The notes under the pieces: generated by a model
Databases searched by the model: none
The model's input: the letters and a program-made list of their open reading frames with translations, nothing else
What the model was told of the DNA's origin: nothing
Shown: positions 14,555-33,428 of the stretch, in pieces
Position numbering within the stretch: position 1 is the stretch's first letter
How the letters are laid out: every line of letters starts with the position of its first letter
Assembly: GCF_051903065.1 (NCBI RefSeq)
Contig: NZ_CP178438.1
Source: Escherichia coli
GTDB lineage: Bacteria; Pseudomonadota; Gammaproteobacteria; Enterobacterales; Enterobacteriaceae
Direction: 5' to 3' (one strand)
DNA length: 64,000 nucleotides
Program-made: the position numbers and the translations under genes

Positions 14555-14609
14555 GGTGATGCTGCCAACTTACTGATTTAGTGTATGATGGTGTTTTTGA
14601 GGTGCTCCA

Positions 14610-14885
14610 GTGGCTTCTGTTTCTATCAGCTGTCCCTCCTGTTCAGCTACTGACGGGGTGGTGCGTAACGGCAAAAGCACCGCCGGACATCAGCGCTATC
14701 TCTGCTCTCACTGCCGTAAAACATGGCAACTGCAGTTCACTTACACCGCTTCTCAACCCGGTACGCACCAGAAAATCATTGATATGGCCATGAATGGCGT
14801 TGGATGCCGGGCAACAGCCCGCATTATGGGCGTTGGCCTCAACACGATTTTACGTCACTTAAAAAACTCAGGCCGCAGTCGGTAA
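14610..14885 (+). CDS. insA: IS1 InsA
   Basis: 91-aa [26 protein letters not shown]..., zinc-finger CxxC...CxxC. Confidence 0.95.
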
Positions 14886-15307
14886 CCTCGCGCATACAGC
14901 CGGGCAGTGACGTCATCGTCTGCGCGGAAATGGACGAACAGTGGGGCTATGTCGGGGCTAAATCGCGCCAGCGCTGGCTGTTTTACGCGTATGACAGGCT
15001 CCGGAAGACGGTTGTTGCGCACGTATTCGGTGAACGCACTATGGCGACGCTGGGGCGTCTTATGAGCCTGCTGTCACCCTTTGACGTGGTGATATGGATG
15101 ACGGATGGCTGGCCGCTGTATGAATCCCGCCTGAAGGGAAAGCTGCACGTAATCAGCAAGCGATATACGCAGCGAATTGAGCGGCATAACCTGAATCTGA
15201 GGCAGCACCTGGCACGGCTGGGACGGAAGTCGCTGTCGTTCTCAAAATCGGTGGAGCTGCATGACAAAGTCATCGGGCATTATCTGAACATAAAACACTA
15301 TCAATAA
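14804..15307 (+). CDS. insB: IS1 InsB (expressed as InsAB' by -1 frameshift)
   Basis: 167-aa ORF overlapping insA in the -1 frame. Confidence 0.9.
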
Positions 15308-15322
15308 GTTGGAGTCATTACC

Positions 15323-17447
15323 CCATGCGGCGTGAGCTGCGCTTACCGTCTGGCGTAAGCGCAATAAGATTAACTCTTTCGCCGTTTTTTACACGGCAAA
15401 TTTTAGCTTGTTTAGCACTCATAAAGACCACATCTCGTTGACCGAATACCCCTCGATAGCGATCATCCATACCATAAATCGTCGTGTTGTACTGATCGTG
15501 GCTGCGTACTGTCGCCATGACCAGCTTACTGTTAAACGCTGAAGAGGGATCTTCTAACAGCCCTTTGCTGGTAATGAAATTAGCCTTACCTGACGGCGTC
15601 ATCCAGCGCCTTTCAGCAGCTGCATTTATCAGGTGAAAACCACCGGGATGACGGATGCGCTGGTTATAGTCGGCGAACTCTGGCAGCACAGCTTCAATGT
15701 CGTTGCGAATGCGATCATAATCTTCCACCAGATACTCCCAGGCTACCACGCTCTGGGGTAGTGCTGCCTGTGCGATTCCCGCGACCACTGCACACTCTGA
15801 TTTCAGCATTACACCGGCGGGTTTTAACACGCCACGCGAGGCATGAATCATCGACATTGAATCCTCAACGGTTACCGCCTGCGCACCGCTTTTTTGCATG
15901 TCAATCTCGCTACGTCCCAGAACCGGCAGAATATAGCTATGCCGTGCGGTCAGCAGATGAGAGCGGTTAAGCTTAGTGGCTACGTGTACCGCCAGATCTA
16001 ATTGCGTTAACGGTACAGCGCTCGCTTCCCGATCTGGCATTGCCAGTGCAAAGTTGCCCCCCATGCAGATCAATGCTCGAGCCTGCCCTGTACATATTGC
16101 TTGCATGCTGGCAATTGCAGCATGTCCAGGTGCTTGAGGTGGTGTGAAGCCATAGCGCTCACCCAGGCGAGCCAGAAACTCTGCAGACGGTTTCTCGGTG
16201 ATACCGACGGTTCGGTCGCCCTGTACATTAGAGTGGCCACGTAGTGGGCAGATACCCGCACCAGGCTTGCCAATGTTACCTTTCATCAACAGCAGATTGA
16301 CCAGTTGCTGTACATTCTGGGTACCATGTTCGTGCTGAGTGATCCCCATTCCGTAACAGATAATGGTTCGTTCGGCAGCGGCATATGCATCAGCCAGTTC
16401 GGCGATTTGTGTCTGACTTAGTCCAGAAATACGTTCGATATCTTTCCACTCGGAATTGAGCACGTCACGGCGTAGCTCGTCAAAGCCGACGGTATGCGTT
16501 TGAATAAATTCGTCATCCAGCAATGAGGGCCGACCTGCGGCGCTTGCAGCATCATCGCGCTCAATTAACAGGCGCATCATCCCCTTGAGCAACGCCATAT
16601 CACCACCAATGCGCACGTTATAGTAGGCACTGGCCAACTGAGTCTCAGAGTTCGTCAGCATTTCAAACGGGTTTTGCGGTGCGGTAAATCGCTCCAGGCC
16701 ACGTTCCTGTAGAGGATTGATGGCGATCATTTTCGCTCCCCGTTTCACTAAAGCGCGCAACGAAGTCAGCATGCGAGGGTGGTTTGTACCAGGGTTATGC
16801 CCAATGCAAATGACTAAATCGCACTTCTCAAAGTCTTCCAGCAACACGGTCCCTTTACCTACACCGATACTCGCTGCCAAACCCACGCTTGTCGGTTCAT
16901 GGCACATGTTGGAGCAGTCGGGAAAGTTATTGCTCCCGTATTCACGGGCAAAAAGCTGATAAAGAAAGGCAGCCTCATTGGAAGTGCGGCCCGAAGTATA
17001 GAATTCAACCTGATTGGGATCACTATAGCTTTGAAGGCGTGCGCCAATTTCATCGAAAGCTTGTTGCCAGCTTAATGGCTTGTAACAGTCGCTGACGGCA
17101 TCATATTTCAAAGGCTGAGTGAGTCGCCCCGCAGCCTCAAGCTCGTGGTCTCCCCAGGTAAGTAATGATTGAACCGTATTCTCAGCAAAGAAAGAGGCGT
17201 TTACCTGCTTATCCGTGACTTCCCAGGCGATTGCTTTTGCGCCGTTTTCACAAATGTCGAATGACGCACTGTGCTTAGGATCTGGCCATGCACAACCCGG
17301 ACAGTCAAAGCCCTCTGGCTTATTCATGTCAAACATGGCAATAACATCCTGGCGTATATCCATCTGCTTACGTACTGCATTCGCTACGGATTTAACAGCA
17401 CCCCAACCACCGGCAGCTCCCTGGTAGGATTCAATTTTTTTCTTCAT
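15323..17447 (-). pseudogene. ydeP: ydeP (molybdopterin oxidoreductase, acid resistance) 5' part, truncated by IS1
   Basis: ORF 15318-17447 encodes the first 708 residues of YdeP and then terminates on a stop codon supplied by the IS1 end. Confidence 0.85.
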
Positions 17448-17690
17448 CTACTTATCCTGTGTGGAAATGAATTATTAGGATTTGTAATAGCGATGATGCA
17501 CAGTACATACAAAGGGATTATCGCCAACATGGATATATAAGAGTAGGGGACTACTCTCTTTCTATTTTTAATCTATTATCGTTAAACAATAGATTAAATA
17601 CGATAAGGTAAGCATCATCTCTCATAGTGTTTAAATTAACATATTTTTTAATATAAAAAATAAGACTCTGGCTTCAATTGTGCGCGGATT

Positions 17691-30910: not shown

Positions 30911-31958
30911 AAAGTAATATTTTGCGATACAAACTTACCGCCATCGCTAATATTGAGGTTTCCGACGCCCGCAACACCAATGGTGGTATAGACATTCTTA
31001 TTGACCTCCCACATCCCCCCCGTGGTGATGCTAACCTTCCCGACGCCGGTTTCTCCATAACCGAGTGAACTTCCTCCGTTGCTGACAACAAGCCCCTGAT
31101 TACTGATATTCATTTCGCCATGGCCGTCATAACCAAGATTAGTTCCGAGATTAGTGATAACGGAGTTCTTATCCTTAACAGTAATGTTGCCTGTGCCTGT
31201 TTCTTTCATCCCCGCAGTGATAATTCCCGAATCTACTTTGCCTTCACTCGAGACATTAAGTTCACCGTCGCCAGCATCACCGATATAGATATAGCGGAAA
31301 GCTTCGCCCGTTCCGAGGAAATTCCAATGCCCTTTATCGGTCACGTTGACGACACCGTGGGAACCGTCCTGAACGCCCACCAATGAATATTCTTTGTTAT
31401 TAATTAGTCCATTATTGGAAATATTGACTGCGCCATTACCGAAGTATCCATTATAGAGTCTGCGTACCGTGATGACAGAGTCTTGATCCTGCACATTCAG
31501 GGTTCCGACACCGGTGGCATTGCCACCGATAATCGTATTTTCAGCCGTAATCAGCCCACCCTCGCGAATAGTCGCCTCCCCAGTTCCTTGATTACCAATT
31601 TGAAATTCAATTGAGGAATCATTATTTTTTATTAGCCACTCGCCACCCTTTTCAACGACAACCTTACCATTACTGTTCGCTTGATATCCTAAAATGGCGA
31701 CTATTGAACTCGTGACGTAACCCTTATCCGTAATATTTAATGAGCCCGTACCGTAACTCCCTATTTCGAATAATTCGGTCGTCAAAACCGAGTCCTCTCC
31801 CTCAACATTAACCGTCCCGACGCCTGCAGCTTGAGTACCTAATCTTAAATAGCCTCCATCGACGTGACCCTTCTGTTTAATATTCAGCGTCCCCGTTCCG
31901 GATTGACCCACATTTAAAGGCCTTGCATTATTTCCGCTATCATACAATCGCCAGGTGC
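30877..31958 (-). pseudogene. yneO: Autotransporter adhesin, 5' portion; no signal peptide, N-terminus removed at the IS1 junction
   Basis: 356-aa ORF with the same repeat type; overlaps the downstream ORF at 30877-30910 in a different frame; abuts IS1 at 31959. Confidence 0.75.
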
Positions 31959-32013
31959 GGTGATGCTGCCAACTTACTGATTTAGTGTATGATGGTGTTT
32001 TTGAGGTGCTCCA

Positions 32014-32289
32014 GTGGCTTCTGTTTCTATCAGCTGTCCCTCCTGTTCAGCTACTGACGGGGTGGTGCGTAACGGCAAAAGCACCGCCGGACATCAGCGC
32101 TATCTCTGCTCTCACTGCCGTAAAACATGGCAACTGCAGTTCACTTACACCGCTTCTCAACCCGGTACGCACCAGAAAATCATTGATATGGCCATGAATG
32201 GCGTTGGATGCCGGGCAACAGCCCGCATTATGGGCGTTGGCCTCAACACGATTTTACGTCACTTAAAAAACTCAGGCCGCAGTCGGTAA
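32014..32289 (+). CDS. insA: IS1 InsA
   Basis: Translation identical to the first copy. Confidence 0.95.
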
Positions 32290-32711
32290 CCTCGCGCATA
32301 CAGCCGGGCAGTGACGTCATCGTCTGCGCGGAAATGGACGAACAGTGGGGCTATGTCGGGGCTAAATCGCGCCAGCGCTGGCTGTTTTACGCGTATGACA
32401 GGCTCCGGAAGACGGTTGTTGCGCACGTATTCGGTGAACGCACTATGGCGACGCTGGGGCGTCTTATGAGCCTGCTGTCACCCTTTGACGTGGTGATATG
32501 GATGACGGATGGCTGTCCGCTGTATGAATCCCGCCTGAAGGGAAAGCTGCACGTAATCAGCAAGCGATATACGCAGCGAATTGAGCGGCATAACCTGAAT
32601 CTGAGGCAGCACCTGGCACGGCTGGGACGGAAGTCGCTGTCGTTCTCAAAATCGGTGGAGCTGCATGACAAAGTCATCGGGCATTATCTGAACATAAAAC
32701 ACTATCAATAA
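32208..32711 (+). CDS. insB: IS1 InsB
   Basis: Identical to the first copy except one residue (W to C) from a single nucleotide difference at 32516. Confidence 0.9.
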
Positions 32712-33428
32712 GTTGGAGTCATTACCAACCGCTTAGTGCCAGCAAAACACCCAGCGTCAATCTACTGAATTTCGTTGTCAGTCCAGAGGATTTTCGCAAA
32801 TTAACCGTTGATGTTTTACCTACCCTGCGAGTTAATTCCGAGCAGGCCTGAAATACCTCTAGAGTGCAATTCCATATCACGCGATAGATTCTATTCATAT
32901 AAACGCTCCATATACAAACAATACAGCCACGAAAGAGATGAGTCGTCAGACATTAAAAATGAAATTTATTAAATTGTCAGAGGTCTGTATTGAGTGTTAG
33001 TTGGAGGTGGGAAAGTGTCAATTTGGCTAATTTGCTAATACTTTCGAATTGATAGATTAAAAATTGCATAGTTCTTATTTCATTTAAAAATGAACTATGA
33101 GTTATTGTTGCTTAATAAGAAAACTGTTTCTTTCAGTAGGAAAATTATCATCATCATATTTAACAAAGAATAGCACTAATTGCTAAAAATCGAAGTTTAT
33201 TAAACCCCTTTTGCATCCATTAATGTCTTTAAGAATATTCGTTATAAAATAAGGGTTATGCTTAATTCTTTAAGAAAAATAGCAATTTTCCCTTGAATAT
33301 AGTACTGGTGATGAAACGATGAATCTGCAAGCTGGCATTTAACAAGCCAGCTCTAAAAGAAGGGAAATAAGAATAACTATACTCAAAAACTAACAGCCAC
33401 GGTCATCATGATGTGGCTGTCAATGAAA

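Follow-up and report, generated by a model that had tools for sequence, protein, structure and literature searches.

Organization of the ydeP-lsrK region

In the window (the whole 64-kb stretch of E. coli DNA analysed here), two IS1 copies lie on the same strand and enclose a truncated ydeP (ydeP'), the F9 fimbrial operon, a yneL-like remnant, hipBA and an autotransporter remnant. The features of the region, in window positions, are the following:

14391..14554, minus strand: 3' stub of ydeP, last 51 codons and stop (mapped from the 23CRST027 annotation)
14546..14554, no strand: left 9-bp target-site duplication of copy 1, CCATGCGGC; the unoccupied site of 23CRST027 and ECNB21-M121 has it once
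14555..15322, plus strand: IS1 copy 1 (IS1A type, 768 bp), with intact insA, A6C site and insB', and G at nt 558
15318..17447, minus strand: truncated ydeP, whose 708 native residues are followed by Gly and a stop read from the IS1 right end
15323..15331, no strand: right 9-bp target-site duplication of copy 1, CCATGCGGC, a perfect direct repeat
17781..24142, minus strand: F9 (fml/ydeQRST-type) chaperone-usher fimbrial operon, six intact genes (annotation transfer, open reading frames, Pfam)
17781-18695, minus strand: F9 adhesin
18755-19258 and 19271-19801, minus strand: F9 minor subunits
19815-22466, minus strand: F9 usher
22508-23218, minus strand: F9 chaperone
23579-24142, minus strand: F9 major subunit
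24576..24845, minus strand: remnant of an AraC-type helix-turn-helix regulator, yneL-like pseudogene
25116..26704, minus strand: intact hipBA toxin-antitoxin operon (hipA 25116-26438, hipB 26438-26704)
26915..31958, minus strand: ECSE_1600-family autotransporter remnant, N-terminal part lost, frameshift near 30877-30910
31958..31959, no strand: deletion junction; 213 bp absent relative to ECNB21-M121, ending exactly at the IS1 left tip
31959..32726, plus strand: IS1 copy 2 (768 bp, the older copy), T at nt 558, common to relatives
32727..32735, no strand: surviving right copy of the original duplication of copy 2, AACCGCTTA (ECNB21-M121 comparison)
32728..32898, minus strand: orphaned 5' fragment of the autotransporter gene with an ESPR-type extended signal peptide, outside the bracketed segment and adjoining lsrK

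The whole span, both IS1 copies included, amounts to 18,172 bp. The 17.4 kb given for the bracketed DNA in the first-pass annotation holds as the start-to-start spacing of the copies (17,404 bp), but the unique DNA between them measures 16,636 bp (15323-31958). The genes follow the native order ydeP-f9-hipBA-autotransporter-lsrK, found in the relatives and across E. coli, and the f9 operon is itself defined by its position between ydeP and hipBA (PMC3966885). The 3' stub of ydeP, severed from the rest of the gene by copy 1, lies outside the bracketed segment.

Structure of the IS1 copies

The presence of two same-strand 768-bp IS1 copies with a single nucleotide difference, reported at first pass, was reproduced in coordinates, strand and length. 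The copies are 99.87% identical over 768 bp, and the sole mismatch falls at IS1 nt 558, which is G in copy 1 (window position 15112) and T in copy 2 (32516). The pair is the only repeat of at least 100 bp inside the 64-kb window. Both copies possess (i) imperfect terminal inverted repeats of about 23 bp, GGTGATGCTGCCAACTTACTGAT / GGTAATGACTCCAACTTATTGAT; (ii) an A6C slippery motif, AAAAAAC, at nt 307, with insA followed by insB' in the -1 frame; (iii) an InsA of 91 residues and an uninterrupted InsB frame; (iv) products matching the Pfam families Zn_ribbon_InsA, HTH_Tnp_IS1 and DDE_Tnp_IS1. The InsA of copy 1 matches PF03811 (1.3e-21) and PF12759 (4.7e-31), and the InsB frame matches PF03400 at 2.3e-78 in copy 1 and 1.3e-76 in copy 2. 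A 9-bp duplication, within the 8-9 bp usual for IS1, is seen in the window for copy 1, and for copy 2 only through comparison with ECNB21-M121. RefSeq assigns the IS1 that corresponds to copy 2 in the relatives to the IS1A family. In length, repeats, frameshift, 9-bp duplication and Pfam families the two copies are like the simple IS1A insertions of E. coli chromosomes. From ordinary IS1 insertions they do not differ in kind; the ydeP site is new among 5,426 complete genomes, and the InsB' of copy 2 has an uncommon Trp to Cys substitution.

Insertion of copy 1 into ydeP

The intact YdeP protein has 759 residues, and copy 1 removes its last 51 codons. The insertion interrupts a C-terminal Molydop_binding-like region (residues 642-751, a match slightly under the Pfam cut-off), and ydeP is probably inactivated in this strain. 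The truncation of YdeP, overlooked in the first-pass annotation, is the one change that has actually happened.

Over the full 64 kb the window differs from 23CRST027 only in three substitutions and in the presence of copy 1 and its duplication. 23CRST027 carries copy 2, an intact ydeP and the target sequence of copy 1 once. The ydeP::IS1 junction was found by BLAST in none of the 5,426 complete E. coli genomes among the matches listed; these comprised the best 40 pieces per record for about 400 IS1-rich records, in which a full-length junction match is expected to be retained. It is present in one draft assembly only, GCA_036912935.1, whose contig of 16,854 bp corresponds to the bracketed segment, ends about 110 bp into IS1 on each side and is 100% identical to the window. 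The sequence of copy 1 is identical to that of the ECNB21-M121 IS1. Judged by these comparisons, copy 1 is a recent simple insertion, later than copy 2 and, as far as the complete genomes go, private to this strain.

Copy 2 and the loss of its left duplication

The flanks of copy 2 in the window are unrelated (left ...CGCCAGGTGC, right AACCGCTTA...). In ECNB21-M121, where ydeP is intact, an IS1 shares this right junction, is flanked by AACCGCTTA on either side and has 213 extra bp on its left. The missing 213 bp consist of 204 bp of the autotransporter gene and the left copy of AACCGCTTA. In strain ES5 the autotransporter gene is uninterrupted, contains AACCGCTTA once and includes the 204 bp. 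Thus, the earlier observation that only copy 1 has a duplication is correct for the window, but copy 2 originally possessed one as well, as ECNB21-M121 demonstrates.

Both breakpoints of the deletion are free of alignment ambiguity; the endpoint lies exactly at the IS1 terminus, the element is kept and the duplication on that side is gone. The same junction occurs in 23CRST027 and 23CRST031 (complete-genome search, among the matches listed) and in four draft or read-based assemblies: GCA_036912935.1, GCA_002941455.1, ERR7528868 and ERR10321876. Three of these four have contigs reaching ydeP, which is truncated only in GCA_036912935.1. The 213-bp loss would be explained most simply by an IS1-promoted adjacent deletion, through intramolecular or abortive transposition. 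In the published model of such deletions (PMC10569738) sequence is likewise lost from the IS1 tip while the element stays intact and the duplication is erased; those events are large-scale chromosomal deletions, whereas the one beside copy 2 comprises 213 bp inside an already inactivated gene.

The window also lacks 2,347 bp between ydeN and ydeM, with clean ends. An IS1 located between yddA and ydeM in ECNB21-M121 was considered as the ancestral cause of this deletion, which lies 247 bp from that site, and was rejected: in the window the site is empty and its target sequence is present once.

The nt 558 polymorphism

The T at nt 558 changes Trp to Cys in InsB' (MTDGW to MTDGC). The altered Trp is nearly invariant among IS1 copies, and a 61-mer with 558T was found in only 8 of 8,101 IS1-bearing records. 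Since the catalytic DDE residues of InsAB' were not located in the accessible literature, it is from the rarity of the change that we infer a possible functional effect on the transposase. Copy 2 and its 23CRST027 counterpart share 558T, whereas copy 1 has G; as 23CRST027 is without copy 1, the T predates the ydeP insertion. Because the two copies differ at this position, the donor of copy 1 was probably not copy 2.

Origin of the IS1 pair

The two direct IS1 repeats with intact outer ends recall Tn9 (PMC12903888), and the 18.2-kb unit could be read as a compound transposon, inserted or formed here as one. This is extremely improbable. On the left the unit is bordered by CCATGCGGC and on the right by the unrelated AACCGCTTA, so no single duplication surrounds it, and copy 1 has a duplication of its own. 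The relatives, moreover, have copy 2 alone with ydeP intact, and the cargo stands in native gene order (PMC3966885) rather than as a block from a foreign source or another locus. Since the segment occupies its original place on the chromosome, it was not brought in by a composite transposon, and the first-pass view that the arrangement was not formed in one event is upheld by copy 2 beside intact ydeP in the relatives, the mismatched outer flanks and the native synteny. While Tn9 shares with the present pair the direct IS1 repeats, the intact outer ends and cargo inside, its cargo is a single cat gene (PMC12903888); here it is 16.6 kb of native chromosome, there is no overall duplication and the copies are of different age. 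An assembly artefact, with IS1 misplaced in ydeP, deserves almost no credence either: IS copies commonly cause misassembly, which is all that speaks for it, but copy 1 has a perfect 9-bp target duplication, and in an independent draft assembly a contig stops within IS1 at the very same ydeP position.

With copy 1 accepted as a genuine insertion, it might still descend from copy 2 through local replicative transposition over 17 kb. The same orientation, the proximity, the one-base difference and the preference of the IS1 transposase for action in cis (PMC12903888) would fit such an origin; it is nevertheless rather improbable, since copy 1 has G although T was already in place before the insertion into ydeP, and 558T alters a nearly invariant Trp. 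Other donors were also at hand, for IS1 occupies 36-37 places in 23CRST027, and in its lineage, compared with about 10 in the median genome (among the matches listed). Somewhat less remote, though still unlikely, is a loss of the left duplication of copy 2 in two steps, in which a further IS1 of the same orientation inserted 204 bp away and then recombined with it. The end product would be identical by sequence to that of a one-step adjacent deletion, IS1 shows high activity in this lineage and gene region, and the two-step route has been put forward to account for junction deletions of the long-term evolution experiment (PMC4173774). This route requires two events instead of one, however, and the complete-genome search revealed no relative with the intermediate among the matches listed.

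Taken as a whole, the sequence comparisons argue with high confidence that the two IS1A copies were acquired independently of each other, in DNA native to the chromosome. The proposed order of events is drawn from comparisons, none longer than 64 kb, of three complete genomes and a small number of draft contigs. First, the ECSE_1600-family autotransporter gene received an IS1 at its 5' end, with the 9-bp duplication AACCGCTTA as the result, a step that the comparisons demonstrate. The common ancestor shared with 23CRST027 and 23CRST031 then lost 213 bp from the IS1 left tip, whereby the left duplication was erased; here the event is demonstrated and its mechanism presumptive. G558T (InsB' Trp to Cys) also arose in copy 2. 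Much later, an IS1 with the consensus G558 inserted into the 3' end of ydeP, yielding the CCATGCGGC duplication and the loss of the last 51 codons, again a demonstrated step.

Potential for recombination and transfer

Recombination between direct copies of insertion sequences, RecA-dependent and leading to deletion or duplication, is textbook behaviour. The direct 768-bp repeats of the window would accordingly be open to RecA-dependent unequal exchange with each other. One such event would take out 17,404 bp, comprising ydeP', the F9 operon, hipBA, the autotransporter remnant and a single IS1, or leave the same stretch duplicated in tandem, and either copy could promote further adjacent deletions. 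The deletion product, position 14554 joined to 32727 through one IS1, was sought by joining 1 kb of each outer flank and looking for both flanks within 1.5 kb; it occurs in none of the 5,426 complete genomes, which is a weak test because all of these are without copy 1. The duplication product was likewise absent from that search. In the long-term evolution experiment, recombination between IS copies lay behind 76 of 110 large rearrangements, IS1 x IS1 deletions included (PMC4173774). The present locus resembles those cases in having two direct IS1 copies around dispensable genes; the experiment, however, has yielded recombination products, whereas in this strain the substrate alone is seen.

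A working Tn9-like transposon, in which the left inverted repeat of copy 1 and the right inverted repeat of copy 2 would move the 18.2-kb hipBA/F9 unit to conjugative plasmids, is very improbable. Its transposase would come from copy 1 or be supplied in trans. The whole segment was found on no true plasmid in PLSDB, where the three matches with at least 80% coverage are of 4.8-4.9 Mb and thus chromosome-sized. A larger piece of chromosome is present on one IncF NDM-4 plasmid; the borders of that piece are different, and it is therefore not the 18.2-kb unit. Equally speculative is a role for hipBA as an addiction module, by which the IS1 x IS1 deletion would be counter-selected.

Significance of the arrangement

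The consequences for persistence and adhesion suggested at first pass were overstated: F9 fimbriae are subject to H-NS repression at 37 °C (PMC3966885), and at least a fifth of the segment is already absent from 58% of complete genomes. The arrangement is routine strain-to-strain variation, of little importance past strain bookkeeping. Loss or amplification of the segment, with hipBA and the F9 operon, may be more frequent than usual, which could matter when isolates of the clone are compared, and the nt 558 marker would let crossover points be mapped. The locus offers a clean, datable example of three IS1 steps: an insertion, an end-precise adjacent deletion and a second insertion.

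Structure of the two IS1 copies and the bracketed segment

This locus shows insertion polymorphism of the kind usual for IS1, and its history is well resolved. The 64 kb window contains exactly two repeats of at least 100 bp, and these are the IS1 copies.

14555-15322, plus strand: IS1 copy 1, 768 bp, nucleotide 558 = G (window 15112)
31959-32726, plus strand: IS1 copy 2, 768 bp, nucleotide 558 = T (window 32516)

The first-pass annotation correctly described two same-strand 768-bp copies with a one-nucleotide difference, the sole mismatch being element position 558. Its figure of about 17.4 kb for the bracketed DNA agrees with the start-to-start distance (17,404 bp), whereas the unique DNA between the copies measures 16,636 bp; the full span is 18,172 bp. 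Canonical IS1 terminal repeats bound both elements; each encodes an intact 91-aa InsA, has the A6C frameshift motif at nt 307 and keeps the insB' frame open, and their products match Pfam Zn_ribbon_InsA, HTH_Tnp_IS1 and DDE_Tnp_IS1 far over threshold. The counterpart of copy 2 in relatives is labelled IS1A family in RefSeq. The T at position 558 replaces Trp with Cys in InsB' (MTDGW to MTDGC). A 61-mer carrying this T has an exact match in only 8 of 8,101 IS1-bearing records, which indicates that the Trp is almost invariant; judged from the sequence, the copy 2 transposase may be impaired, and the element may be decaying. In the close relative 23CRST027, the matching element has an additional G444T change.

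Gene content was carried over from the annotation of a nearly identical genome and then checked against open reading frames:

Minus strand: ydeP, split by copy 1, its last 51 codons falling outside the segment and the remaining 708 inside
Minus strand: six-gene chaperone-usher operon, F9/fml, intact
Minus strand: remnant of an AraC-type regulator gene
Minus strand: hipB and hipA, both intact
Minus strand: ECSE_1600-family autotransporter gene, frameshifted, without its 5' end
Minus strand: orphaned signal-peptide fragment of the autotransporter gene, right of copy 2, then lsrK

The F9 operon is defined by its location between ydeP and hipBA (PMC3966885). The frameshift of the autotransporter remnant lies at 30877-30910 and leaves ORFs of 1,331 and 356 aa; the gene of strain ES5, uninterrupted by IS1, is likewise annotated as frameshifted, whereas in QL57EC the coding sequence is intact and an IS1 lies immediately upstream of it.

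History of the two insertions

Copy 1 is recent and private. A perfect direct repeat of 9 bp, CCATGCGGC, stands on either side of it; this sequence occurs once in the intact 759-aa ydeP of 23CRST027; the gene is also intact in the relative ECNB21-M121. The copy 1 junction was found in none of 5,426 complete genomes, and one draft assembly, GCA_036912935.1, records the shortened YdeP (708 residues plus Gly). The 16,854-bp contig that encodes it corresponds to the bracketed segment, ends about 110 bp into IS1 on each side and is 100% identical to the window, thereby giving independent support for the window structure. Since the insertion cuts a C-terminal region resembling a molybdopterin-dinucleotide-binding domain (residues 642-751, score slightly below the Pfam cut-off), YdeP is probably inactive in this strain. 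The ydeP truncation is the sole actual change so far from the IS1 pair.

Copy 2 is older. Over the full 64 kb, only three substitutions and copy 1, together with the duplication it made, separate the window from 23CRST027, which has copy 2 with the same flanks. These flanks, left and right, are unrelated. In ECNB21-M121, whose flanking sites differ from those of the window by about 0.04%, the IS1 at an identical right junction has AACCGCTTA on both sides and 213 extra bp on the left; the uninterrupted ES5 gene contains AACCGCTTA once, together with the missing 204 bp. This comparison shows that copy 2 was originally an ordinary insertion with its own 9-bp duplication and later lost 213 bp. The deletion junction is also present in 23CRST031, and at contig ends in GCA_036912935.1, GCA_002941455.1, ERR7528868 and ERR10321876; the contigs from GCA_002941455.1 and ERR7528868 reach ydeP and carry the intact 759-aa gene.

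The loss starts exactly at the left tip of copy 2, and neither breakpoint is alignment-ambiguous. IS-end-precise loss with the element kept is what one would predict if IS1 causes deletions by abortive or intramolecular transposition (PMC10569738). A possible alternative takes two steps, in which a further IS1 was present transiently and then recombined (PMC4173774); its product would be identical in sequence to that of the one-step deletion.

The T at position 558 is common to copy 2 and its 23CRST027 counterpart, and is therefore older than the ydeP insertion. At this position copy 1 has the consensus base, G, and its sequence matches the ECNB21-M121 element exactly; on this evidence it was probably copied from another of the lineage's many IS1 copies, not from copy 2. 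IS1 occupies 36-37 places in 23CRST027, where the per-genome median is about 10.

The first-pass annotation rightly concluded that the pair is not a composite transposon formed in one event, but its reasoning, that only the first copy has a duplication, was incomplete, as copy 2 once had AACCGCTTA. A composite transposon by history is rejected: no target duplication surrounds the whole unit, the genes inside stand in their native synteny, the two insertions were separate in time, and the complete block is found on no true plasmid in PLSDB. The outer ends of the pair are intact. Direct IS1 pairs are able to move cargo, as Tn9 shows (PMC12903888).

Recombination between the copies

With their single mismatch, the 768-bp direct repeats share two stretches of unbroken identity, 557 and 210 bp long. 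From established knowledge we infer that they are good substrates for RecA-dependent unequal exchange, which would yield a 17,404-bp deletion or tandem duplication; more adjacent deletions, starting from either copy, are also possible. In the long-term evolution experiment, recombination between IS copies underlay 76 of 110 large rearrangements, IS1 x IS1 deletions among them (PMC4173774). A joined-flank query found the two outer flanks within 1.5 kb in 0 of 5,426 complete genomes, a weak result that is expected because copy 1 is absent from all complete genomes.

The bracketed segment is dispensable and variable across E. coli: at least 80% of it lies in one place in only 2,255 of 5,426 complete genomes, and losses differ by lineage, with fimbrial genes, hipBA or the autotransporter missing, or other cargo at the site. 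The altered persistence and adhesion proposed in the first-pass annotation are a generic possibility. Deletion of wild-type hipBA has mild effects, and cells newly without the segment could be at a passing disadvantage from losing a toxin-antitoxin pair. F9 is under H-NS repression at 37 °C (PMC3966885). The phenotypic effect of segment loss is probably modest.

Variation in the surrounding region

The sequence from the F9 operon to the autotransporter gene (window 24200-26900, compared with genome matches H180, H181 and H204) varies across E. coli, which fits the variable 5' region reported in PMC3966885. In some genomes SIR2 and aldo/keto-reductase cargo occupies it, and in some only a HipA-family toxin or HipA-domain protein is annotated. 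One 150-kb IncFIB/FIC NDM-4 conjugative plasmid record (L015, NZ_CP050167.1) contains the chromosomal block yddB-yddA-ydeM-ydeN-ydeO-safA-ydeP plus the F9 operon, after which an ABC-three-component defence-like system replaces hipBA, followed by an IS1 adjoining betT; this is either an F-prime-like capture or a misassembly.

The first ~730 bp and start region of the autotransporter gene have received at least four separate IS1 insertions across different E. coli lineages, identical in orientation and with their own 9-bp duplications (AACCGCTTA, GAGGAATCG, GCGTCAATC and AAACGCTCC):

31959-33000, window (copy 2 and the sequence to its right)
2293-3060, comparison locus L006
3448-4215, comparison locus L007
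3301-4068, comparison locus L008

Repeated insertion there could mark a hot spot for IS1 targeting or result from selection against the autotransporter. In 41 complete genomes an IS1 lies near enough that one match spans most of a 2.9 kb query taken around copy 2. Between yddA and ydeM, a third IS1 is present in ECNB21-M121 (L014 3763-4530), in the same orientation and with the duplication GTTAAATGA; the window site (11943-11951) is empty. With three lineage-specific insertions in ~21 kb of such closely related genomes, IS1 seems to have been highly active in recent times.

A deletion of 2,347 bp with clean ends, located at window 12189|12190 and shared with 23CRST027, has taken out most of ydeM along with the 3' two-thirds of ydeN; its junction has neither microhomology nor an IS. 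Between lsrG and tam (42175-43816, mapped from the 23CRST027 annotation), a truncated IS200/IS605 tnpA adjoins a full-length tnpB (InsQ-type RNA-guided endonuclease).
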